The notes under the pieces: generated by a model
Seen by the model: only the letters and a program-made list of their open reading frames with translations
The model's database searches: none
What the model was told of the DNA's origin: nothing
Source: Mustelus asterias
Taxonomy: Eukaryota
Assembly: GCF_964213995.1 (NCBI RefSeq)
Contig: NW_027590189.1
Span: forward strand, 496,001-560,000
Length of the DNA stretch: 64,000 nt
Direction: 5' to 3'
Made by a program: the position numbers and the translations under genes
Shown here: positions 2,031 through 58,214 of the stretch, piece after piece
Layout: every line of letters begins with the position of its first letter
Position numbering within the stretch: position 1 is the stretch's first letter

Positions 2031-3546
2031 AAGGCGAGGGAAGAGATTGCAGAGCCTCTGGCGATGATCTTTGCGTCGTCGATAGGGACGAGAGATGTGC
2101 CGGAGGATTGGAGGATTGTGGATATGGTTCCTATTTTCAAGAAGGGGAATAGGGATAGCCCAGGAAATTACCGACCGGTGAGTCTAACCTCAGTGGTTGG
2201 TAAACTGATTGAGAAGATCCTGAGGGACAAGATTTATGAGCATTTAGAGAGGTTTAGTATGCTCAAGAATACTCAGCATGGCTTTGTCAAAGGCAGATCG
2301 TGCCTTACGAGCCTGGTGGAGTTCTTCGAAAATGTGACCAAACACATTGACGAAGGGAAAGCAGTAGATGTGGTTTGCATGCATTTTAGCAAGGCGTTCG
2401 ATAAGGTCCCCCATTCAAGGCTTCTAGAAAAAGTGAGAGGGCATGGGATCCAAGGGGCTGCTGCCCGGTGGATCCAGAACTGGCTTGCCCAAAGGAGGCA
2501 GAGAGTGGGTATAGATGGGTCTTTTTCTAAATGGAGGTCGGTCACCAGTGGTGTGCCCCAGGGATCTGTTCTGGGACTCTTGCTGTTTGTCATTTTCATA
2601 AATGGCCTGGATGAGGAAGCGGAGGGATGGGTTGGTAAGTTTGCCGACGACACGAAGGTTGGTGGGTTGTGGATAGTCTGGAGGGATGTCAGAAGTTACA
2701 GAGGGACATAGATAGGATGCAAGACTGGGCGGAGAAGTGGCAGATGGACTTCAACCCAGATAAATGCGGAGTGGTCCATTTTGGCAGGTCAAATGGGATG
2801 AAGGAGTACAATATAAAGGGAAAGACTCTTAGTACTGTAGGGGATCAGAAGGACCTTGGGGTCCGGGTCCATAGGAATCTAAAATCCGCCCCGCAGGTGG
2901 AGGAGGTGGCTAAGAAGGCGTATGGTGTGCTGGCCTTTATCAATCGAGGGATTGAGTTTAGGAGTCCGGGGATAATGATGCAGCTATATAAGACCCTCGT
3001 CAGACCTCGCTTGGAGTACTGTGCTCAGTTCTGGTCGCCTCATTACAGGAAGGATGTGGAAAAGATTGAAAGGGTGCCGAGGAGATTTACGAGGATGTTG
3101 CCTGGATTGAGAGGCATGCCTCATGAAGATAGGCTGAGAGAGCTCGGTCTTTTCTCTTTGGAGAGACGTAGGATGAGAGGAGACTTAATCGAGGTATATA
3201 AGATGTTGAGAGGCATAGATCGGGTGGACTCTCAGAGGCTTTTTCCCAGGGTGGAAATGACTGCTACGAGAGGACACAGATTTAAGGTGCTGGGGGGTAG
3301 GTATAGGGGAAATGTTCGGGGGAAGTTTTTCACACAGAGGGTGGTGGGAGAGTGGAATCGGCTGCCGTCAGTGGTGGTGGAGGCAAACTCAATAGGGTCT
3401 TTTAAGAGACTCCTGCATGAGTACATGGGACTTAATAGGATGGAGGGTTATAGGTAGGCCTAAAAGGTAGGGATATGTTCGGCACAACTTGTGGGGCCGA
3501 AGGGCCTGTTTTGTGCTGTAGATTTTCTATGTTTCTATGTTTCTGT
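2031..3546 (+). mobile_element. CR1/HER1-type LINE, 5'-truncated (RT and 3' UTR)
   Basis: ORFs 2064-2711 and 2669-3457 with YRPVSLTS, GVPQGSVLG and KFADD motifs, one frameshift; 3' hairpin gggccgaagggcc and (TTTCTATG)n tail. Confidence 0.95.
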
Positions 3547-5494
3547 AGCTGTGATCTAACTGCCACCAGGTGGATGCAGAATGCTATGACACGAGTTTCT
3601 CGACCACAGCTGGATTTCTCCAGTCCCGCTGCAGTAAACGTAGATTTCGCTGAGCACCAATTTCTCCGCTGTCGTTCGCAGCGGAATTCCGACCAAAATC
3701 TTTCACCCAGTCTGGAAGAATGTGGCGTACAGATGTCAGGACTCCCCTGAACAAGGTGTTGGCCTGCATCTCCAATTCAGAATGGAGGCCACCCCCAACT
3801 TTCGTCCCCAGAACATTATAAGATTTATAAATATAAAGATTTAAATTCAACTTTGGATAAAATAAATTGAAGGATTGGATTTTTAAAAGTACACCTGTCT
3901 GAAGGGGTTTTTTATCTGCGAATTAGTAAAGCAGCAGGCAAACAAATGATTACGTGAGTCACTATGGATTGAAATGAAGAGGTGTAATTAAGATAGCACA
4001 ACATCAGAAGGAATGGAAACTATAGCCATGGGAGCTGAGTACAGGAGGAGCGGAAGGGCGACTACCAAAAGCAGCAGCCAGCTGGAAAAAGCAGGCTCTG
4101 CAAAAAGGCAATGCACTGCTGTTTAAAAAGAAACTTTAACAGAGAAGAACTGCTACGCTGGACTGAAGAAAGTTTTCCCAAATTGGAAAATAATCCGTGG
4201 GTGGTCACTATAATCTGCATTATATAATTTCGAATGATGTTCGGGAGAGGGGCAGTTCTCAGAGGTCAGGAACCTGGACAGCTAGGAAAAGGGGTCAACC
4301 TCATGAGATACTTTGTGTGTGTAGCCATTATTGAAGTTAAGGGCCCTGCTGAAATGCCTTTCTTGCTGTGCCTTAAATTTAATAACTATCCATTATTAAT
4401 TATTTGCAACAAGGCTGGGCCATGTCTCACTCATTTCCTTTTTGATATACATTATGTCAAATTGAAAATTTCCACAATTGAAAATTGGTGTTCCAATTAA
4501 TCCTTCTGTACTTTGGGATACCCTCACATTTAACATCAGCGAGGTTCTTAACGAACACCACAACAGTGGGTGCCTTTACAGGTTAAATTGAATCGAGGAG
4601 TTCCATTTCGCTGCCCCATAATGTTCCCAGAGATCCATTTTCTTTCTCAAGAGGCCATCATTCCGGCCTCAGAATTTCTATTTATCTAAAAGAACCCCAT
4701 CCACCACTCTCAGAGGCAAAGTGTTCTGGATGCTTGGTACTCACTGTGGAAAAATGTTCCTCCTCCATCACCCTCACCCCCTCCGTCCATTGCCCATAAT
4801 CTTAAAAAAATGACCCCTTCCATACCCCAGCCTATCTTCCGTTAGGACCACCAGCTAATGGGAACATCTTTCCTTTATATACCTGAGAAAAACCTGTCCT
4901 ACTCTCATCCACTTCGATTACATTTCTCCTCAATCTCCTCCGCTCCATTGGAGAAGAACTACAGCATCTCGACCTTCTGGCTAATTTGTGAACGTTTCAA
5001 AACGCGACTTATTCACAGATATTTCTCCATGGGGTTTAACTAGATTTGGTCAACTTTTGAAAAACTGCTATCGAGCTGAATATATCTTGTGAACTTCTTA
5101 ACACTAAACATACTTGAAACAAATTCTTCCCTAGAATTTGACAAGTGTTGGTCAACTTTTTGGAAACTAGTTTCAGCATTTTCCAAAATAACTTTTCCAT
5201 ACCATCATCTAGACGGCTCCAACTTTTTAAAATATAGCTTAAACTTATCAAAATGTTTTCCAAACAATATAGCAAACGTTCGTGAAAAGAAACTCGTTTA
5301 AATATGTTTAAGGCTAATCTTTCAGTAGAATTTAACTTTAAATAGTCGGTTTCTGTTGAAAAACAATTACCTAAGATAAATCTCTCGAGAGAAGCAAACT
5401 GAAGTTCGTCAGCATTTACCTGAGTGAAACTAATGTTATTAAAGGCAGTCATCGAAAGTAACATGGAACTTGTAAACTTTTTTTAAAGTTGCAT

Positions 5495-5567
5495 CGAGCA
5501 AGCCAGAAGTCGAACCTGGAACCATTTGACCCATAGTCAGACGCATTATCCAATGCGCCACTAGCCC
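5495..5567 (-). pseudogene. tRNA-Arg(ACG)-derived pseudogene (anticodon mutated to ATG)
   Basis: GGGCTAGTGGCGCATTGGATAATGCGTCTGACTATGGGTCAAATGGTTCCAGGTTCGACTTCTGGCTTGCTCG aligns to vertebrate tRNA-Arg-ACG with several stem-breaking changes. Confidence 0.85.
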
Positions 5568-5818
5568 ATGTGCAAACTTGCGGCAGATGTTCCATATTGG
5601 GTCGACGCTTCAGAATAGGGCAGAAGCTTTGTCAAAATTATTTGTTTACTTGTGACGATCGGCTCCACCATTGTGATTTTCTTTGTTCATTTACAGTCAT
5701 TCCTAATTGCCCTTGAATTGAGTTGCTGAGTTAATCTGCCGTGTTGCAATTAAAGAAAATAACACTGCCCAACCACTCACCACTCCCCTCACTGGACCAA
5801 TTGTCGAATATCACTTGA

Positions 5819-15944: not shown

Positions 15945-16700
15945 ATGATTTGATTTGGTTTTATTTATTATTGTCACATGTATTAGTATACAGTGAAAAA
16001 CATTTTTTCTTGCGCGCTATACAGACAAAGCGTAGCGTTCATAGAGAAGGAAACGGGAGAGTGCAGAATGTGGTGTTGCAGTCATTGTCAGGGTGTAGAG
16101 AAAGATCAACATAATGCAAGGTAGGTCCATTCAAAAGTCTGATGGCAGCAGGGAAGAAGCTGTTCTTGAGTCAGTTGGTACGTGACCTCAGACTTCTGTA
16201 TCTTTCTCCCGAAGGAAGGAGGTGGAAGAGAGAATGTCCGCGGTGCGTGGGGTCCTTAATTATGCTGGCTGCGTTGCCGAGGCAGCAGGAGGCGTAGACA
16301 GAGTCAATGAATGGGAGGCTGGTTTGAGTGATGGATTGGGCTACATTCACGACCTTTTGTAGTTTCTTGCGGTCTTGGGCAGAGCAGGAGCCAAACCACG
16401 CTGTGATACAACGAGAAAGATTATTTTCTAAGGTGCACCTGTAAAACCTGGTGACCGTCGTAGCTGACATGTCAAATTTCCTAAGTCTTCTGAGAAAGTA
16501 GAGGCGTCGGTGGGCTTTCTTCCCCCCATAGTGTCGGCATGGGGGGCAAGGACAGGTTGTTGGTGATCTGGACACCGAAAAACCTGAAGCTCTCGATCCT
16601 TTCTACTTCGTCCCCTTTGATGGAGACAGGGGCACATTCTCCTCTACGCTTTCTGAAGTCAATGACAATCTCCTTCGTTTTGTTGACATTGAGGGAGGGA
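15945..16700 (-). mobile_element. Rex1/Babar-type LINE 3' fragment
   Basis: ORF 16171-16575 KKAHRRLYFLRRLRKF...LPSGERYRSLRSRTN; (tcaaa)n-type tail; reverse complement of the 21540-22275 region. Confidence 0.88.
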
Positions 16701-16814
16701 TGAGAGAAATGATCAATGAGAAAATACTTTGCGGTTCACAGGCCTCAGAGTGAGGTACGCATTAAATCAGAAAATGATTTGACCACAGAATGAGGCCATG
16801 CGAAGGAATGGCAA

Positions 16815-17415
16815 TATAATTCCAAGTCTGGATGGTGAGTGGCTTGGAGGAGAACTTGCAGGTGGTGGTGTTCCCATGTGTCTGCTACCCTTGTCCTTCT
16901 GGAAGGAAGTGGTTGTGGGTTCCGAAGGTGCTGTCTAAGGATCTTTGGTGAATTGCTGCTGTGTATCTTTTAGATAAACATCGCTGCTCCTGAGCGTTGG
17001 TGGTGGTGGGATTGAATGCTTGTGGATGTGGTGCCAATCAAGCGGGCTGATTTGTCCTGGATGATGTCAAGCTTCTTGAGTGTTGTTGGAGCAGCACCCA
17101 TCCAGGCAACTCGAGAATATTCCATCTCACTCCTGACTTGTGCCTTGTAGATGGTGGACAGGCACTGGGGAGGCAAGAGGTGAGTTATCCGCCGCAGTAT
17201 TCCTGGCTTCTGACCTGCTCTTGTGACCACTGTTTATGTGGCGAGTCCAATTGAGTTTCTGGTCAATGGTAACCGCAAGGATGTTGACAGTGGGGAATTC
17301 AGTGATGGAAAAACTATTGACTGTCAAGAGGCGGTGGTTAGATTTTCTCTTATTGGTGATAGACATTGTCTGGCATTTGTGTGGAGCGAATGCTACTTGC
17401 CACTTGTCAGCCCAA
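16815..17415 (-). mobile_element. CR1/L2-group LINE 3' fragment (family distinct from HER1)
   Basis: WADKWQVAFAPHKCQ and STIYKAQVRSEMEYS...LDIIQDKSARLIG; related decayed pieces at 6120-6640 and 13720-14210. Confidence 0.8.
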
Positions 17416-17744
17416 AACATAAAGTCTAATATAGTGCAGCATACTGCGGACTTTCGAAATCTGAAATAAAAACAGAAAATACTGGGTTTTGTCAGTATTT
17501 CTGGCACTGTCTGTAGAGTGAGAATCTGAACTAGTGTTTCCCGTCCAGATGTCACATGGAAGGCGCGGACATGATGGCTGTCCGCGCCTGCCATGTGGGT
17601 GTCTGAGTGGGCTCTTTCCGTGCTGTAAATCTCTGTGCCTCTTTGACTCTTTTTCGGAGCCAGTCAGCAGAAAGCCATCCCGCCTTTTGCACCTGAAACA
17701 AATCACAATATCTGACTTGGTCAAAAAGAAACAGATACCCTCAT

Positions 17745-17834
17745 GGGCTCATCCGGGATTTGAACCCGGGACCTCTCGCACGTTAATGGACTGCGGTACC
17801 CTAAGCGAGAATCATACCCCTAGACCAACGAGCC
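17745..17834 (-). tRNA. tRNA-Pro(AGG) with an 18-nt intron at position 37/38 (intron 17798-17781)
   Basis: GGCTCGTTGGTCTAGGGGTATGATTCTCGCTTAGGG[TACCGCAGTCCATTAACG]TGCGAGAGGTCCCGGGTTCAAATCCCGGATGAGCCC; exons match vertebrate tRNA-Pro-AGG except a G6-U67 wobble; T5 terminator at 17727-17723. Confidence 0.92.
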
Positions 17835-18383
17835 TGCACGTCAGCCGTGGGCAAAATAAAAATTGTTTAGCTTTCTACAAAGCAGTTCTGACACCTCGAG
17901 TGAAAGACGAAATTGTTTCAATAACTCACCGCATCAGCATTTGTGGACTTTAAGCTCCAGCAAAATATCCGCCCAATATTGTTACCTCGACTGTTTGCAA
18001 CTGGGGGCTTTTGTTTATGAAGTACACATGTTGCAGTCAATAATTTTAACCCAGCGACTTCAACATGTGACAACTCTGAGCCTGCCTTTGATATTTGATC
18101 ACTTTTGAAAGGTGTGGTCTGTCACACAGTTAACTGCTCTGGAACATTTAAAGTACAGATTTATGACCTTGTTCTCCTGGGTGATCTGCAGGTTTGTGTG
18201 AATGGGGTCGGGGAACGATTGGACTTGATCTGATATTAATATGAGTAAAAATATGTCATGAACCTCAGTGAGGGAAAACACTCAGACGGGGCTGTATTGT
18301 CACGCTCACTATGCGTAGATTTTCTGTGAGTTTTAACCCCATGTGTTGTCCTGACAATGAATCATTGATTTTCGACCTGTGCC

Positions 18384-18422
18384 AGATTCTGTATGAGGCC
18401 CGCGGGAGCCTCATTCACTGTG
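18384..18422 (-). other. Recombination signal sequence (23-RSS) of V4
   Basis: CACAGTG + 23-nt spacer AATGAGGCTCCCGCGGGCCTCAT + ACAGAATCT. Confidence 0.88.
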
Positions 18423-18926
18423 ACTCTCAGTGCACAGTAATACTCGGTGCTGTCTGTCACCTTCTCATCTTTCATGGAAATGTGCTTTGTTTCAGGTTGA
18501 GATTCCCGCTGAAGTGTTCAAAACCTGGAGCCGTATCGGTAAATTAGCGGCTCTGAGCAGTTCATGAGGAGCTCGATGTGTATACTGGCGATACCAGAAC
18601 AGGGAATGTTGTATAGCTGTACTCGGTACCGAGTAACTGCAGGGTATTGCTGAATCTTCACCCTCTGCTGCTTCAACTCCTGGTTCTGACTGGGACACTG
18701 AGTCACCGTCACTCATGTCTGAAAATCGACAACAGACGCGCAGTGGGTTAGAAGGAGTAACAACAACGGAATAATCACCTCGAGATGGAAATGGGGAATG
18801 AATATGGTGACTGGCGGATTTCACGCAGAAGTTCAAAATGACAGACCTGTAATCAGAGTAAGAAAGAGTTTCGCCCCCATGGTTCGAGTCTGAACACCAG
18901 AAACAGAGAGTCATCACTGCCTGCAT
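18423..18926 (-). pseudogene. TCR alpha/delta-type V gene segment pseudogene (V4)
   Basis: 52-nt leader from ATG 18926 with a GC donor; V exon from 18718 DMSDGDSVSQSEP...AIPCSYS...LFWYRQY...; frameshifts and a stop, then DEKVTDSTEYYCALR. Confidence 0.88.
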
Positions 18927-19154
18927 CAGGTCTGCAATTAGAGAAGTTGAAACAGTCAGGAGGATGTTATGAGGTCGAAGGTGACTCCCTCTCTCCGCCC
19001 ATTTTTACATCTTCAAACAGGCACTGACTTCCATTAGAAGGGGATCGTGATATTTCATAAGTGATCAGAGAGCGCCCTCCGTGGACAGCGCGGCCGCATC
19101 TTGGAAACAGATACACACACGGCCACCTGCAAAGATTTACACATATAGAGATCA

Positions 19155-19385
19155 GAGAATCATAGAATCGTAGAACCCCTACAGTACAGAAGGAGGCCAT
19201 TCGGCCCACAGAGTCTGTACCGATCACAAGCCCTCGCAGGCCCTATTCCTGTGACCTCATACATTTACCCCGCTAATCCCCCTGACACTAGGGTCAATTT
19301 AACATGGCCAATCAAACTAACTTGCACATCTTTGGACTGTGGAGGAAACCGGAACATCCGAGGAAACCCCCGCAGACACGGGGGG
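19155..19385 (-). mobile_element. HE1-type SINE, partial
   Basis: agaatcatagaatc tail, gaaggaggccattcggccc, gcacatctttggactgtgg. Confidence 0.8.
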
Positions 19386-24066: not shown

Positions 24067-24792
24067 ACATAGTTCAAAGTGAAACTGTAACTAAACTCGA
24101 GGAAATTGCGCAGAACCATTATTTTAACATCGTTCTTCAGAGTAACGAAATAAGGAAAACCACTCAGACAGTTGGCGAAATCGAGAATCAGTGCGGATCT
24201 ACTGGACTTTCCTACAGCTGAATGAGATTTAGACGCCTGAGTGTTTCACACACAGAATAAAGAGGGATCAAGGATAACTAACAAATCGTTCTTAAATCTC
24301 TTCCCCTGAAAGATATTTGATTTTGTTGAATAGCTGATTGTGGTCAATCTCAATGAAGCACCCTAACATGTGTATTACCCAGTGACTCGATTCCTTTTGT
24401 TGGTCAGCAATTTCTTTTGTTGGTTTGCAATTCAATGCTGTCTATTTCGGAGATATTTCATTCAGAATGAGGAGATATGTAATGAATAAAAATATATTAA
24501 TATTAAACATTGAACAGCAAACAAATATTGGGCAGAACTGGTTGAAATTATTTGAAGGAAGATGAGAATGATGCATTAATGTTTGAGCAGAAATCATTGC
24601 TCCCTTAGATATTTGCCGGACGACCGCTTATAAATGTTGAAGTTCAAGATGAGTTGAGAATTCAGGTTGGAAGAAACGGTTTTTGTCTTGTATTAAGTGA
24701 CATGGGTTCTCAGGATAACCATGAGAACCTGCAGCAACACAGTCGAGTTGAACATTGTGATCAGGCCAATTGGCGGCGCTATGCTGTCAGCT

Positions 24793-24865
24793 GTTTCTGT
24801 AGTGTAGTGGTTATCGCGTTCGCCTCACACGCGAAAGGTCCCCGGTTCGAAACCGGGCAGAAACA
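24793..24865 (+). tRNA. tRNA-Val(CAC), intact
   Basis: GTTTCTGTAGTGTAGTGGTTATCGCGTTCGCCTCACACGCGAAAGGTCCCCGGTTCGAAACCGGGCAGAAACA; full cloverleaf, single A24G change. Confidence 0.93.
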
Positions 24866-25631
24866 TTTATTGAAATTATTCATTGAGTATGAGGGAAGTT
24901 TTGCATGGTTTCAGTTGTTGCTGAACATGATCTGAATCTCGATGTTCCAGCCATGTTATCTTTGGTCTGACCTCGGCCTCAAATGCTCTCAGTAAAATCA
25001 GAAATGCTGTATTTTAAGACGCAATGAGGAAATAAATGTTTGTACTTTGACACCGTGCGCATATTCGCAATTTGTTCGGTCCATACCAGAATTTAATGGA
25101 TTTATAAGTGCAGACTAACATAGTTAATCACCATCTGAAACATGTGTAATAGTACTGTGTGTTCATAAACACAGACAGAAGTGAAAGTGTAACTGAACTA
25201 GAGGAAATGGCGCACATTTCCCGGAAGCATATTTTTAAAATTGTTCTTCATAATAAAGAAATGGGAAAAAAATCACTCAGGCAGATGAGTAAATCGAAAC
25301 TCAGTGTAGTTCTGCTGGACTTTTCTATAGATGAACGGGATTTAGGCGCCAGAATGTTGCACACGCAGAATAATGAGGGATTAAGTATAACCAGCAGATC
25401 ATTATTAAATCTTTTCCCTTTAAAGATATTTGATATTGTTTAAAAGCTGACTGTCTCAAATAAGCACCATGGGATGTGTATTACCCAGTGACTCGATTTC
25501 TTTTATTGGTCAGTCATGTTTGCAATGCAATGTTGCATATTCCCGAGATATTCAATTCAGAATGAAGATGTATGTATTAAATACATGGATTCATGTTTAA
25601 TATTGAATAACGAAACAAATATTGAGTAACC

Positions 25632-26957: not shown

Positions 26958-27032
26958 AACATGAGAACCTGCAGCAACACAGCAGAGTTGAACCTTGCAG
27001 ACAAGTCGATTGGCTACACCGAACTGCTGGTG

Positions 27033-27105
27033 GTTTCTGTAGTGTAGTGGTTATCATGTTTGCCTAATGCGTGAGAAGTCCCTGGTTCAAAACCAGCTAG
27101 AAACT
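27033..27105 (+). pseudogene. tRNA-Val pseudogene (AAC-type, anticodon arm mutated)
   Basis: gtttctgtagtgtagtggttatcatgtttgcctaatgcgtgagaagtccctggttcaaaaccagctagaaact. Confidence 0.8.
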
Positions 27106-27555
27106 TTAGCATTTCAGGAAGTATGCATGATTTTGGTTATTTGCTGAACATTATCCAATTCTCGATGTTGCCATATTATGTTTGTTTTGACCTCGGTCTC
27201 AAATGCTTTCAGGAAAATCAGAAATGCTGCATTTTTAGATTTAGTTGCAGGAAAGAGATGTTGGTATTTTGACACCGTGCATATATTAGCAACTTGTTCG
27301 ATGCATGGGTTTATAGATGTAGACCAACATAGTTAATCACCATCTGAAACATGTCTAATAGTAGTGTGTGCTCATAAAGACAGACACAAGTGATACTGTA
27401 ACTGAACTAGAGGAATTGGTGCACATTGCACAGAAACACCTTTTTAAAATCGGTTTTCAGAATAAAGATATACAGAAAACCATTCATGCTGATGAGGAAA
27501 TCGAGGCTCACTGCAGATCTACTGGACATTCCTATAGATGAATGGGATTTAGGCA

Positions 27556-31789: not shown

Positions 31790-34100
31790 GCAGCTTTAAT
31801 GGTCCGTGATTGCAGAAACTGAGCAGTCACAGGAATGTGGTCAAGATAGTCCAGTCCCACAATGCCTCACATTCAATCTGCAGTCCTTCAATTATAACAG
31901 AATATGTGGCTGTATGTAGCTGCCTCGGCCACGATCAGCGCCAACACTGCCTTCTTAAACTGCTACAATGCCTGAGATGTAAGTACACTCACAGTGCTGT
32001 TAGGGAGGGATTTCCAGCTACACATTCCAGACTTTCACGAGACTGTAGGTGGATACCAGATTGATATATTCCATTCAACTACTCCAAAGGTGAGTTATTC
32101 TAATTCCTTTATTGTCCAGGACAATATATTCACAATATCTTTAAAACAGAAATTAAACATTCCCATTTGATTTCAGGTGTTAACATATTCTGTTAGTTTG
32201 TTCTTTATTGTCGATGTCAGGCTGGGGTTGTTCCTCTTGGAGCAAAGGAGGTTGAGGGGAGATTTGATCGAGGTGGACAAGATTCTGACAGGTTTAGATA
32301 AGGTGGACAAAGAAAAGCTGTTCCCCATTAGCTGATGGGACAAGGACGAGGGGATTTATGGTTTTGGGCCAGAGATGCAGGGGGGATGTGAGGAAGAATA
32401 TTCTGATGCAGCGAATGGTAATGACCTGGAACTCGCTGCCTACGAGGGTGGAGGAAGTGGAGTCAATAAGCAATTACAAAGGAAATTGGATGGGCATCTG
32501 GGGGAGTTTCAAACAGAAATAGCGACTCTTAACTTCCTAACACCCTGTCGCTCTGTGATCCGTGTGAAATTTGAAACTAGGTATTCGCAACAAGACTCAA
32601 ATACCATCAGTCCACTGGAAGTAAAGTCATGAGACCGGCCAGTCCAGCAGAAAGAAACCCTCCGACCCTCCCCATTGACCAACTGTGAGAATGAACAAAA
32701 TGTCCTGGATGTAACTGAGAGCAGAAACAATAACAGGAATGTGGTCAAGAAAGTCCAGTCCCATAATTCCTAGAATCACTCGTGAACTCGTTGGTGTCTC
32801 AGCAGGGCGGATGAAAGACTGAATCTCTTCTCACACACAGAGCAGGTGAACGGCTTCTCCCCAGTGTGAACTCGCTGGTGTGTCCGCAGGTTGGATAATC
32901 GTGTGAATCCCTTCTCACACTGAGAGCAGGTGAATGGCCTCTCCCCAGTGTGAACTCGCTGGTGTCTCAGCAGGCTGGATGAATCACAGAATCCCTTCCC
33001 ACACTGAGAACAGATGAACTGCCTCTCCCCAGTGTGAACGCGCCGGTGTCTCTGCAGGTGGGATGACCGAGTGAATCCCTTCCCACACTGAGAGCAGGTG
33101 AACGGCCTCTCCCCAGTATGAACGCATGCATGTGCCCGCAGGTCAGATGACCAAGTGAATCCCTCCCCACACTGAGAGCAGGTGAACGGCCTCTCCCCAG
33201 TGTGAACTCGCTGGTGTGCCCGCAGGTCGGATGACCGAGTGAATCCCTTCCCACACACAGTGCAGGTGAACGGCCTCTCCCCAGTGTGAAATCGCCGGTG
33301 TGTGCGCAAGGTGGATAAATGACTGAATCCCTCCCCACACTGAGAGCAGGTGAACGGCCTCTCTCCAGTATGAACTCGCTCGTGTGACCGCAGGTCGGAT
33401 GACCGAGTGAATCCCTTCCCACACTGAGAACACATGAATGGTCTCTCCCCAGTGTGAACTCGCTGGTGTGACTGCAGGCTGGATGACTGAGTGAATCCCT
33501 CCCCACACTGAGAGCAGGTGAATGGTCTCTCCCCAGTGTGGTTGCGCCGATGAGCTTCCAGCTCTGATGGGGATCTGTATCTCTTCCCACAGTCCACACA
33601 TTTCCATGGTTTCTCCATGGTGCAGGTGTCCTTGCCACTCTCTTGGGTGGACAATCAGTTGAAGCCTCACACAGAACACGGGTACAGTCTCTCCCCGCTG
33701 TGAATGGTGTGATATTTATTCAGGCTGTGTGACTGGTTAAAACTCTTTAGTCCGTGCACTGGAACACTCTCACTCGAGTGTGGCGGTGTGTTGGTGCTTT
33801 TCCAGTCACACTGACATTTCAAATCTTTTCAAATCAACAGACCGGACAATCATTTCTCCTTCCAGATTCAAAGTCCGATGATATTCAGCTCCCAAGGAAT
33901 ATGACTCTGTCAGATCTGACGTGACGTTTGAGATTTCGGCCTGTGATTCCTCTTTCAATATCCTGTAAAACAAGTTTACAAAAGTCATCAGTGTCAGTAC
34001 AGGATAGAAATTCAGAACAGACAATTCTAGTTTCTATGGAACATTCTTTCCTCTCTCATTCCCCAAAAAGCTGTAAATCTCCATCCCACACACTCTCCCT
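31790..34100 (-). repeat. Inverted duplication arm (partner ~56735-60000)
   Basis: ZNF exon and downstream flank are reverse-complement paralogues (compare ORFs 31810-32064 and 59759-59986; 32375-32632 and 59226-59453). Confidence 0.88.
32776..33618 (-). CDS. C2H2 zinc-finger protein, 10 fingers, no KRAB/SCAN domain visible (ZNF-A)
   Basis: ATG 33618 MEKPWKC...; tandem CxxC-x12-HxxxH with TGERPF linkers; exon acceptor at 33963-33964. Confidence 0.92.
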
Positions 34101-42786: not shown

Positions 42787-43458
42787 TCATTTGTGAACTC
42801 GCTGGTGTCTCAGAAGGTCGGATAACTGAATGAATCCCTTCCCACACTCAGAGCAGGTGAATGGCCTCTCTCCAGTATGAACTCGTTGGTGTCTCTGAAG
42901 AGTAGATGACTGAGCAAAGCTGTTCCGACACACAGAACAGGTGAATGGCCTCTCCCCAGTGTGAACTCGTTGGTGTACCAGAAGGTCGGACAACTGACTG
43001 AATCCCTTCCCACACTCAGAGCAGGTAAATGGCCTCTCCCCAGTGTGAACTCGCTGATGTCTCAGAAGTTGGGATGACTGAATGAATCCTTTACCACACA
43101 CAGAGCAGAGGAATGGTCTCTCCCCAGTGTGAACTTGCTGATGTGTCAGAAGGTGGGATGACCGATTGAATCTCTTCCCACACACAGAGCAGAGGAACGG
43201 CCTCTTCCCAGTGTGAACAAGCTGATGTGCTACCAGATGCTTCTTGCTTTTAAACGTCTTCTCACAATCAGAGCATTTAAAAGGTCTATGATCACTGTGT
43301 ACAAGTTGATGGTCAGTGAGGTGGGATGAATGAGTGAATCGCTTCCCACAGACAGAGCAGGTGAATGGTGGCTCATCAGTGTGACAATGATAACGTTTTC
43401 TCAGCTTTGGGTAATTGAAGCCCTTCCCACAGTCCCCACATTTCCACAGTTTCTCCAT
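42787..43458 (-). CDS. C2H2 zinc-finger protein, 7 intact fingers plus 1 degenerate (ZNF-B)
   Basis: ATG 43458 MEKLWKC...; TGERPF-linked fingers. Confidence 0.88.
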   Translation of the reverse strand: MEKLWKCGDCGKGFNYPKLRKRYHCHTDEPPFTCSVCGKRFTHSSHLTDHQLVHSDHRPFKCSDCEKTFKSKKHLVAHQLVHTGKRPFLCSVCGKRFNRSSHLLTHQQVHTGERPFLCSVCGKGFIQSSQLLRHQRVHTGERPFTCSECGKGFSQLSDLLVHQRVHTGERPFTCSVCRNSFAQSSTLQRHQRVHTGERPFTCSECGKGFIQLSDLLRHQRVHK

Positions 43459-43999
43459 GATGCCAGTGTCCTTGTGACTCTCCAGATTGGACAATCAGTT
43501 GAAACCTTGTCCAAACTGTATAGTTTCTCCTTGCTGTGAATGCTGTGATGTTTTATCAGGCTGTATAACTGGTTAAAGCTCTTTCCACAGTCAGTTCACT
43601 GGAACACTCTCACTCAGTGCTTTTCCAGTCAATTGTTTCAAAACTTCCAGTTTGAAATCCTCAGACAGAACAAAGAAACATTTCTCATTCCACATTCAAA
43701 GGTCCACAATATTCAAGCGCTGATGAATCAAGTGAGTAGATGTTGGATGTCATGTTTGGTTTGATGTTCTTGTTTGGAATTCCTCCCTTTCTCATAGCCT
43801 GTAAAAGGAGTTTATAAAATTAATCCTCGGAAGTACAGGACAGAAATTCTGAATAGACAATTCTGATTCTGTGGAACATCTTTTCCTCACTTGTTCACTT
43901 ATGGGCTGAAGGATCTCTTTCTGTGCTGTGTGACTCTATAACAGCAAGTCCAGTTAGCCCCAAGACCTCAGTGCCTGCTCACCCACATTGATTCCCAGT

Positions 44000-50964: not shown

Positions 50965-52113
50965 TCAGTCCTGGATATGATTAACAGCATCAAGAAGAGT
51001 AGAATCCAAACCTTGCAGTCGTTTGTGAACTCGCCGGTGTGTTAGCAGGTGGGATGACTGAATAAATCCCTTTCCACAGACATTACAGGTGAACGGCCTC
51101 TCCCCAGTGTGAACTCGCTGGTGTTTCAGAAGATAAGATAAATGAGAAAATCCCTTCCCACAGACAGAGCAGGTAAATGGCCTCTCCGCACTGTGAACTC
51201 TCTGATGTGTCAGCAGGCTGGATGACTGACTGATTCCCTTCCCACACACAGAGCAGGTGAACGGCCTCTCTCCAGTGTGAACTCGCTGGTGATTCAATAG
51301 ATTGGATGAACGAGTGAATCCCTTCCCACACACGGAGCAAGTGAATGGCCTCTCCTCACTGTGAACCTGCTGGTGTGTCAGAAGGTTGTATGAACGGGTG
51401 AATCCCTTCCCACATTCAGAGCAGGTGAACGGTCGATCCCCTGTGTGGAGTTGCTGGTGTATCAGAAGGTTGGATGAATTAATGAATCCCTTCCCACAGT
51501 CTGAGCAGATGAAGGGCCTCTCCCCAGTGTGAATTCTCTGGTGGTTCAATAGGGCAGATGGACGGCTGAATCCCTTCCCACACACACAGCAGGTGAATGG
51601 CCTCTCCCCAGTGTGAGTATATTGGTGCGTTAGCAGATCATTTTTATTTTTAAAGCTCTTCTCACAGTGAGAACAATTAAAAAGTTTGTTATCAGAGTGA
51701 ACAAGTTGATGTGTCTGCAAGTGGGATGACTGAATGAATCCTTTCCCACACACACAGCAGGTGAACGGTCTCTCCCCAGTGTGAATACGTTGGTGTGTCA
51801 GCAGATCCTTTTTGCATTTAAAACTCTTCTCACAGTCAGAACATGTAAACAGTCTCTCATCAGTGTGAACAAGTTGGTGTGTCACAATGTGGGATGAGCG
51901 AGTGAATCCCTTCCCACACACAGGGCAGGTGAACGGCCTCTCCCCAGTGTGAACCCGTTGGTGAGTCAGAAGATTGTATGAATGGGTGAATCCCTTCCCA
52001 CAGACGGAGCAGGTGAACGGTCTCTCCCCAGTGTGACTGCGCCGATGAACTTCCAATTGTGATGGGAAACCGAATCCCTTCCCACAATCCACACATTTCC
52101 ACGGTTTCTCCAT
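50965..52113 (-). CDS. C2H2 zinc-finger protein, 13 fingers (ZNF-C)
   Basis: 382-aa ORF MEKPWKC... with 13 CxxC/HxxxH repeats; acceptor ctacag near 52473. Confidence 0.93.
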
Positions 52114-53039
52114 GGTGCAGGTGTCCTTGTGTTTCTCCAGGTTGGATGATCAGTTCAAGCCTCATCCACACACACAACATACACGTAGTTTCACCCTGCT
52201 GTGAACTGTGATGTTTTTTCAGGCTGTGTAACTGGTTAAAGCTCTTTCCACATTCAGTTCACTGGAACACTCTCACTCGGGTGTGTGTTTGTCCCGATGC
52301 TTTTCCGGTCATACTGATGTTTAATTTCTTTGCCCACAGGCAGAACAGACAAATATTTCTCTTTCTATATTCAAAGACCAATGATATTCAGCTCCGAAGG
52401 AACTGAATGACTTTGTCAGATGTGATGTCCGGTTTGAATTTTCTGTCTGCCAATCTTTCACTTCCAATATCCTGTAGAAACAGTTTCGAAAAGTCATCAC
52501 TGTCAGAACACGATACAAACTCTGAACAGACAATTCTAGTTTGTCTGGAACATTTTTTCCTCTCTTGTTCCCCCAAATCTGTAAATCTCCGCCCCACACA
52601 CTCTCCCTCCTCCCTGGGCTGAAATCCAAACCCATCTCACCATTTCTTTCCTCCACTCCCAGTTTTCTCCCTCCCTCTCCTCTGTCTGGGTTCAGTTCTC
52701 CAGCTCCTGTCTGCAGACTGACAATAAAACCAATGGGTCTTATTGGGGGTGTTGGGACCTCCAGCGGGCGTTTGTGAATCCTCCCCGCCCACCTCCCAGG
52801 GTTTCCTTCCTTCCCAGAGATCAGAGTCCTCATTGATTTGAGGCCAAAGTGTAACCTCTTATTTATTGTCCCCCTCCCCCATCCTCTGATGTGAACCATC
52901 CTCCAGTGGCTGAGCCAGGATGGGGCCGGTAACCTGGGCCTGTTCCCGGGAGGGAGGGAGGGAGAAGCCCCGCAGCTGCAAACCAGGGAGCTGACAATGA
53001 TTCTGAAGGGTTTGCGGATCCACAAAGTGTTTCCAAATC

Positions 53040-56733: not shown

Positions 56734-57220
56734 AATGGGGAGAGAGTGTGTGGGATGGAGATTTCCAGCTTTTGGGGAATGAGAGAGGTAAGAATGTTCC
56801 GTAGAAATTGTCTGTTCTGAATTTCTAACCTGTTCTGACACTGATGACTTTTGGAAACTCATTTTACAGGATATTGAAAAAGGAATCACAGGCCAAAATC
56901 TCAAACGTCACGTCTAGACGTGACAGAGTCATATTCCTTGGGACCTCAATATCATCGGACTTTGAATCCAGAAGGAGAAATGATTGTCCAGTCTGTCAAT
57001 TTGAAAAGATTTGAAAGGTCAGTGTGAGTGAAAAAGTATCAACACACTGCCACACTTGAGTGAGAGTGTTCCAATGCACTGACTAAAGAGCTTTAACCAG
57101 TTACACAGTCTGAATAAATATCGCACCATTCACAGCGGGGAGAGACTGTAATCTTGTTCTGTGTGTGGACGAAGTTTCAACTGATTGTCCACCTAAGAGA
57201 GAGGTAAGGACACCTGCACC

Positions 57221-57977
57221 ATGGAGAGACCATGGAAATGTGTGGACTGTGGGAAGGGATACAGAGCCCCATCAGAGCTGGAAGCTCATCGGCGCAGCCA
57301 CACTGGGGAGAGACCATTCATTTGCTCTCACTGTAGGGAGGGATTCACTCGGTTATCCCAGCTGCAGTCACACCAGCGAGTTCACACTGGGGAGAGACCA
57401 TTCACCTGCTCTCAATGTGCGAAGGGATTCATTCAGTTATCCAACCTGCAGACACACCAGCAAGTTCACACTGGAGAAAGGCCGTTCACCTGCTCTCAGT
57501 GTGGGAAGGGATTCACTCAGTTATCCGACCTGCAGAGACACCAGCGAGTTCACACTGGGGAGAGACCATTCACCTGCTCTCAGTGTGGGAAGGGATTCAC
57601 TCAGTTATCCAACCTGCAGACACACCAGCAAGTTCACACTGGAGAAAGGCCGTTCACCTGCTCTGTGTGGGAAGGGATTCACTCAGTTATCCGACCTGCA
57701 GAGACACCAGCGAGTTCACACTGGAGAGAGGCCATTCACCTGCTCTCAGTGTGGGAAGGGATTCACTCGGGTATCCAACCTGCGGGCACACCAGCGAATT
57801 CACACTGGGGAGAGGCCGTTCACCTGCTCTCAGTGTGGGAAGGGATTCACTCGATCATCCGACCTGCGGGCACACCAGCGAGTTCACACTGGGGAGAAAC
57901 CATTCACCTGCTCTCAGTGTGGGAAGGGATTCAGAGTTTCATCCCACCTGCTGAGACACCAGCAAGTTCACGAGTGA
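57221..57977 (+). pseudogene. C2H2 zinc-finger gene ZNF-D, 9 fingers, 2-nt frameshift in finger 6 (pseudogene, truncated allele or assembly error)
   Basis: ORF 57221 gives 5 fingers; frame shifts at tgctctgtgtggg (~57659-57671); ORF 57165-57977 frame completes 4 more; paralogue of ZNF-A; acceptor ttttacag at ~56868. Confidence 0.85.
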
Positions 57978-58214
57978 TGACAGGGGTTGGATTCTGCTGT
58001 TATTGTTTCTGCTCTCAGTTGCATCCAGGACTGCATTTTGTTCATTCTCACAGTTGGTCAATGGGAAGGGGCAGAGGGTTTCTTTGTGCTGGACTGGCTG
58101 GTCTCAGCCTCCAGTGGGCTGATGCTCTTTGAGTCTTTTTGCGAATACCTGGTTTCAAATGTCACGAGGATCACAGAGTGACAGGGTGTTAGGAAGTTTC
58201 GAGATATTTAGTCA

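Follow-up and report, generated by a model that had tools for sequence, protein, structure and literature searches.

One gene in the window, by which we mean the whole stretch of 64,000 nucleotides of Mustelus asterias DNA that was analysed, belongs to a large proline tRNA gene family that has an intron between positions 37 and 38 (Table 1). Judged from its sequence features, this family is probably transcribed by RNA polymerase III (Pol III) and spliced by TSEN and RTCB to standard tRNA-Pro. The genome holds well over a hundred predicted intron-bearing tRNA-Pro genes of this kind, and predicted tRNA-Arg(TCG) genes form a second intron-bearing family of the same sort.

The sequence-only reading of the window had proposed that 18 nt are inserted at position 37/38 of an otherwise canonical tRNA-Pro(AGG). 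This was borne out by the 36-nt exons on either side and by ARAGORN, which called a tRNA-Pro(AGG) with an 18-nt intron when run with its intron search; the gene was missed by Rfam and by ARAGORN in its default mode, i.e. without intron search. In this copy alone, the register of the insert is ambiguous by one base in either direction, and it was set to 37/38 because the introns of the paralogs L058, L082 and L272 have other first and last letters. The tRNA body is canonical in that 71 of its 72 exon bases match an intronless Pro-AGG gene, which itself scores 53.9 bits in Rfam, but not in the remaining base: C67U turns the G6-C67 pair into a G6-U67 wobble, and the three closest paralogs retain C67. 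The A and B boxes, which had been described as intact, indeed have the same letters as those of intact intronless genes. The T5 run that had been taken for the terminator is also real, but it starts only 17 nt beyond the gene. We are less sure of this individual copy, with its wobble, than of the family, and consider its activity somewhat more probable than its silence.

Table 1. Coordinates of the tRNA-Pro(AGG) gene in the window, its parts and setting, and of related loci discussed in the text
Feature	Position	Strand	Remarks
tRNA-Pro(AGG) gene with intron	17745..17834	minus	member of the 18-nt-intron AGG subfamily
5' exon, tRNA positions 1-37	17799..17834	minus	36 nt; same as in intronless Pro-AGG genes
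Intron between G37 and U38	17781..17798	minus	18 nt; ARAGORN with intron search, and folding
Intron bases -3 to -6	17783-17786	minus	opposite U32-G35 (17804-17801), pairing
3' exon, tRNA positions 38-73	17745..17780	minus	36 nt; single change, C67U, relative to intronless genes
A box	17816..17827	minus	internal Pol III promoter
B box	17755..17766	minus	internal Pol III promoter
T5 run	17723..17727	minus	likely Pol III terminator
Duplicated DNA unit with the gene, part	16245..19310	no strand	at least 3 kb, ends unmapped
Pro-AGG pair on contig C19	L272:1000-1091 and 2761-2852		T runs immediately downstream
Pro-CGG family of 16 copies	L290-L301		contigs C85, C102, C103, C130, C155
Arg-TCG genes with intron	L159-L184		contigs C72, C75, C85
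Arg-TCG gene without intron	L157		contig C24

Other tRNA-like calls in the window lie at 5494-5568 (-), 27032-27106 (+) and 24792-24866 (+), the last being a good Val(CAC). For the other two, the identities given by ARAGORN were rejected, as the supposed His(ATG) is a tRNA-Arg(ACG) body in decay and the supposed Ile(AAT) a Val body in the same state. The window also contains four C2H2 zinc-finger repeat arrays with an 84-bp period, among which tRNA genes and pieces of LINE reverse transcriptase are scattered, at 32776-33654, 42787-43494, 50965-52149 and 57197-58132.

To what extent the insert is a family trait can be judged from its genomic relatives. A DNA search returned 577 candidates, and the 40 that were scored are full length without exception. 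Since these 40 matches all cover the full 90 nt, chance is excluded on sequence grounds as the source of the insert, and the 18-nt insert was present in each of the 30 matches that were fetched. The 5'-exon 21-mer has 242 exact matches and 478 with one mismatch, compared with 10 exact intronless junctions, and the perfect 3' exon occurs 110 times. There are 142 perfect 5' exons, of which 100 were among the matches listed and 99 were analysed: 89 of these belong to genes with an intron, 8 are intronless and 2 are without a 3' exon, while the hundredth listed (L229) is intron-bearing too. Both exons are perfect in 44 of the 89 intron genes and the 3' exon is changed in the other 45. The introns, about 10 to 20 nt long across the Pro family, are present in AGG, TGG and CGG genes. 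These counts (89 of 99) speak against a single untranscribed copy, the case named beforehand as fatal to the idea of a spliced gene. They also overturn the proposal of a single intron-bearing isodecoder, since, besides Arg-TCG, most Pro genes have introns whichever of the three anticodons they carry.

The intron-bearing genes are mostly located on contigs C71, C85, C89 and C91 and on many small contigs, among other tRNA genes. AGG paralogs have mostly spread as duplications of at least 3 kb with 85-96% identity, as in the paralogs that align over most of the duplicated unit in Table 1; seven AGG paralogs have only 115 nt in common with the window. At least seven intact intronless Pro genes (3 TGG, 3 AGG and 1 CGG) were found on the large contigs C3, C4, C10 and C17, with T runs 2-3 nt downstream for all three anticodons. 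An eighth intronless gene, a Pro-TGG at L037:569-640 on the minus strand, has a compensated swap in the anticodon stem (G31:C39), escapes the search patterns and sits about 0.8 kb from a standard Pro-AGG. Because there are intact intronless AGG, TGG and CGG genes, proline decoding need not depend on splicing, and these genes could be the source of most tRNA-Pro. The large contig C19 carries two intact, divergent intron-bearing AGG genes back to back, with unrelated 18-nt introns and the pair kept, which are candidates for old, single-copy intron loci. In one TGG subfamily, no T4 was found within 54 nt.

Two kinds of repeated elements were seen besides these genes. At L079, L081, L105, L107, L121 and L122 (contigs C85 and C102), there are repeated decayed Pro genes whose anticodon is GGG and whose inserts are 11 nt long; they are probably pseudogenes. 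A GC-rich 93-nt element is present four times in L315:804-8783 (contig C120) at spacings of 3.2, 2.3 and 2.3 kb; the Ser call that ARAGORN made on it is spurious.

The anticodon-intron helix that had been read from the sequence was recovered by folding. The four bases from U32 to G35 are able to pair with intron bases -3 to -6, as U32:A(-3), U33:A(-4), A34:U(-5) and G35:U(-6), leaving a 3-nt bulge of two intron bases and U38, and the isolated anticodon arm with its intron folds with this helix and bulge. When the whole precursor is folded as a single sequence, the minimum-energy structure is other than the cloverleaf (-30.3 versus -26.1 kcal/mol), and the pair probabilities of the helix are 0.06-0.10. 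Over 29 distinct 90-nt precursors, the 4-bp helix is paired at 98.3%, versus 86.5% in shuffled sequences (0 of 500) and 19-57% in slid registers, a test that overstates the difference because the copies are related. RNAalifold found the helix and bulge unprompted and placed the 5' splice site in a 14-nt loop; it misfolded the D and T arms. The proposed extension of the helix by G36 and G37 with CC is possible only if intron base A(-7) is bulged, and a pair between N36 and -7 exists in only 2 of 51 perfect-exon genes. As there is also no outer helix at the 5' site, a strict archaeal bulge-helix-bulge intron was rejected; the modelled structure is the bulge-helix-loop form of eukaryotes. Those marks of a canonical eukaryotic tRNA intron that can be read from sequence and predicted structure are present, namely the 37/38 position, the N32 pair, the helix with its 3-nt bulge, and an intact tRNA body with A and B boxes.

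Among the 76 intron genes whose exons have no more than one mismatch, the intron base at -3 is always a purine; at -1 and -2 all four bases occur. When genes were instead chosen by a perfect 3' exon, 37 of 41 distinct introns had a purine at -3, and pairing was possible at N32 in 37, N33 in 40, N34 in 36 and N35 in 41 of them. The wobble base faces intron base -5 as A:U in 17 of these introns, as U:A or U:G in 15 and as C:G in 4, and is unpaired in 5; across ten hand-assigned families the 34/-5 pairing (7 of 10, p=0.10) was not significant. The four introns that lack the N32 pair all come from a Pro-CGG family of 16 copies with G16U, in which U32 faces a U at -3 in 12 of 12 copies examined. 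In this family, pairing of U33-G37 is good and 8 of the 12 examined copies have a perfect 3' exon. Reviews have called the N32 anticodon-intron pair critical (PMC10485636).

Constraint was estimated from 74 genes of four subfamilies, chosen only by their perfect 5' exon; genes with at least 10 mismatches in the 3' exon, contigs below C68 and genes with 14-nt TGG introns were left out. By parsimony, the number of changes per site was 0.20 for the 3' exon and 0.52 for flanks of 120 nt; intron positions outside the helix had 0.86 and the four columns of the helix 0.62. The 3' exon, which was not selected for, thus changes at about 40% of the flank rate, a figure that is lowered by the exclusion of badly broken copies; an earlier pairwise count in one subfamily that included broken copies gave no exon constraint (0.135 versus 0.116 in the flanks). 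The helix columns do not change more slowly than the flanks, and their changes are mostly between bases that are still able to pair. This pattern fits birth-and-death turnover of the sequences with a working core, and with such turnover many copies are dead. Part of the exon constraint could come from gene conversion or from selection on the B box alone.

Indirect traces of transcription and splicing were sought among 65 Pro-like sites on large contigs. Of these, 43 have an intron, 16 are intronless (7 intact genes and 9 decayed copies), 5 are cut short and 1 has a 4-nt remnant. The 43 decayed, intron-bearing copies have a SINE-like motif within 90 nt in 28 cases and a purine at -3 in 39 cases, against a background of 0.49. 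Their homology to cluster genes ends no more than 19 nt upstream, except in L228 (142 nt). Downstream it extends for 14-51 nt where the source subfamily is recognisable; elsewhere a short homology proves less, as the source is missing from the set. By these boundaries, the dispersed copies resemble precursors that were retroposed together with their leader and trailer. Most of them end at the terminator and not at a cut site, and in a check of 28 dispersed copies target-site duplications did not exceed the control. A tRNA-derived SINE was rejected as the nature of the family, since the cluster paralogs have about 3 kb of flank in common and the dispersed copies are dissimilar and joined to other elements.

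A few copies are informative about splicing itself. Eight of the nine decayed intronless copies have, as judged by eye, the short trailers of intact intronless genes and serve as an internal control. In the ninth, L031, which is likewise intronless, the trailer agrees at 38 of 43 bases with that of a TGG subfamily that bears introns. Because the 10 exact intronless junctions are all located outside the clusters, L031 is best read as the copy of a spliced but untrimmed precursor; a possible alternative source is an intronless paralog that has since been lost. L056 and L064 are made up of the 5' exon and a 13-nt intron, end right at the 3' splice site and switch there to a LINE (93.8% identity over 257 nt, from +14) or a SINE (from +14/+15). 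At this end point, a cyclic phosphate would remain after the 3' cut by TSEN. In L235, L239 and the Arg copy L156, the end lies at G37 or close to it; L235 and L239 are weak cases, as their junction letters are common to the SINE start. The end of L155 is ambiguous. The first half-copy at L065 was rejected as a third intermediate of the 3' splice site, as its junction may be DNA microhomology with the upstream flank of the next gene. Truncations that precede the end of the 5' exon are invisible here because the search patterns need the 5' exon. The retrocopy ends of L056, L064 and L031 are thus suggestive, and lend indirect support to transcription and splicing. In addition, the dispersed copies L058, L052 and L270 are close to identical with cluster subfamilies that exist today, implying that they were transcribed in the germ line not long ago.

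Decayed intronless copies fused to SINE or LINE pieces were also observed, on contigs C3 (L032, L033, L048, L049, L233), C4 (L234, L248) and C17 (L069). In each case, the apparent source gene is found on that same contig at a distance of 0.2-14 Mb, a hint that retroposition was local.

The tRNA-Arg(TCG) genes form the second intron-bearing family. Its 5' exon has 78 exact matches, compared with a single exact intronless junction. Among 30 loci, 21 were parsed with introns, 6 have inserts recognised by eye, 1 is intronless and 2 are truncated. All 21 parsed introns are 16-20 nt long and have a C32:G(-3) pair, and none pairs at U33. In a survey of other isotypes covering about 1.2 Mb of sampled DNA, credible introns were found only in Pro, Arg-TCG and the known Arg-TCT genes. 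The Asn, Lys-CTT, Thr-CGT, Arg-ACG, Arg-CCT, Val, Gly-TCC, Ser, Leu-CAG/TAG/TAA, Trp, Gln, Glu and Met bodies in this sample were intronless, and no true Tyr, Ile, Leu-CAA, Ala, Cys, His, Phe or Arg-CCG genes were met in it. Since the other sampled isotypes, apart from Arg-TCT, are intronless, the introns appear to be specific to certain isotypes and not a general trait of the clusters. A scan of metagenomes gave four matches (L151-L154), all to one Pro-TGG whose intron is 24 nt long and whose acceptor stem differs; this gene is probably from a microbial eukaryote and has no bearing on vertebrates.

Taken with the family-wide structure and the exon constraint, the retrocopy ends support the initial proposal of a TSEN-type intron in a spliced Pro gene, the geometry of the family being one that matches human TSEN substrates (PMC10539383, PMC10275265). 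Pol III would transcribe the intron-bearing precursor, and TSEN, by analogy with the human TSEN structures (PMC10539383), would grip the tRNA body and cut after G37 and in the bulge. RTCB would then join the halves to give a standard tRNA-Pro. Germ-line precursors and cleavage products may have been captured by SINE/LINE retroposition to give the dispersed copies, either by template switching or possibly with a role for RtcB in ligating TSEN-cut ends to retroelement RNA, as for U6 and L1.

The strongest alternative accepts that the introns are real in origin and holds that the cluster copies are mostly silent passengers that multiplied along with heterochromatic repeats of zinc-finger and tRNA genes, nearly all tRNA-Pro being made by the few intronless genes. 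The many decayed copies, the changed 3' exons in about half of the intron genes with a perfect 5' exon, the weak terminators of one subfamily and the finding that zebrafish chromosome 4 tRNA genes mostly lack accessible embryonic chromatin (PMC11574265) would all agree with this. However, silent copies would leave unexplained the slow change of the 3' exon relative to the flanks, the recent germ-line transcription implied by L058, L052 and L270, and the two intact intron genes on C19. We therefore regard this alternative as unlikely, and note that it concerns the level of activity and overlaps with the explanation that we prefer. That the insert is no intron at all, but an inherited and never-spliced insertion in a tRNA-derived repeat, is highly improbable, as the inserts of 10-20 nt have very different sequences and yet all lie at 37/38, mostly with a purine at -3, recur in a second isotype with the matching C32:G, have spread by multi-kilobase duplications in a manner that is not SINE-like, and are found in truncated copies that stop at or near splice sites.

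Beyond a transcribed and spliced family, a bolder scenario can be outlined, which we consider possible but rather doubtful. In sharks, introns may have arisen afresh in two isotypes, namely Pro with all of its anticodons and Arg-UCG, with a splicing-dependent germ-line or maternal pool beside intronless housekeeping genes, and with retroposed TSEN intermediates, ligated to SINEs or LINEs, as fossils. The germ-line pool is put forward as a hypothesis only, because clustered zebrafish tRNA genes have been linked to maternally deposited tRNAs (PMC11417395), whereas most predicted zebrafish tRNA genes are on the heterochromatic chromosome 4 and are in closed chromatin in embryos (PMC11574265). These zebrafish clusters resemble the shark ones in that many clustered genes lie in repeat-rich DNA and few are isolated, but tRNA introns are not mentioned in the available text of either report (PMC11417395, PMC11574265).

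The mechanism proposed here is a known one; what is added is two newly named intron families of vertebrates, together with genomic fossils that are suggestive of splicing. In yeast, an intron is a normal feature of Pro-UGG genes, and a single doubtful human Pro-AGG with an intron was at one time listed in GtRNAdb. Four families of intron-containing tRNAs are described in humans, i.e. Tyr-GUA, Ile-UAU, Leu-CAA and Arg-UCU (PMC10275265). As in the shark, their introns are short, lie at 37/38, vary in sequence within a family and pair N32 with the third-last intron base, and intron-bearing and intronless genes are mixed in Arg-UCU and Leu-CAA (PMC10275265). In contrast, Pro (AGG, TGG, CGG) and Arg-TCG are absent from the human list given there, the shark genes are about ten times as numerous, and only a small minority of them is intronless. 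In the literature as far as it was accessible, we found no description of vertebrate Pro or Arg-UCG introns, and the supplement of tRNAscan-SE 2.0 gave no match to shark, lamprey or coelacanth. The main text of the Squalomix preprint on sharks does not contain 'proline', 'Pro' or 'arginine' as whole words and, in the parts available, gives no evidence on structure, selection or splicing; its Figure 3A or supplements may split counts by isotype. Lachancea thermotolerans tRNA-Ala(UGC) offers a parallel of lineage-specific canonical introns in one isotype, but all isodecoder genes bear introns there, whereas both forms occur here, and in a vertebrate (PMC4090602). Circular tRNA introns (tricRNAs) have been described for metazoans (PMC4536317). 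For the dispersed copies, the closest parallel is the chimeric U6/LINE-1 retrocopies, in which a Pol III RNA with a cyclic-phosphate end is ligated by RtcB to retroelement RNA and retroposed (PMC6789731); TSEN cleavage leaves a 2',3'-cyclic phosphate like that on U6 (PMC10539383). Here, a shark SINE or LINE would instead be joined with a pre-tRNA or with a product of its cleavage, and most copies end at the terminator.

With these families, the set of spliced vertebrate tRNAs, usually given as four, gains two. The Pro and Arg families probably explain part of the excess of intron-containing tRNA loci that has been reported in sharks, and counts in further cartilaginous fishes would allow the gain or loss of the introns to be dated. 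With dozens of introns that have diverged while the tRNA body stayed unchanged, the families form a natural series on the requirements of TSEN, within which the Pro-CGG family with U32:U, apparently without a canonical anticodon-intron pair, is a natural test. Lastly, as the same mature tRNA is encoded by both intron-bearing and intronless genes, the purpose of the intron, be it tissue-specific supply or modification, is open to a direct test.
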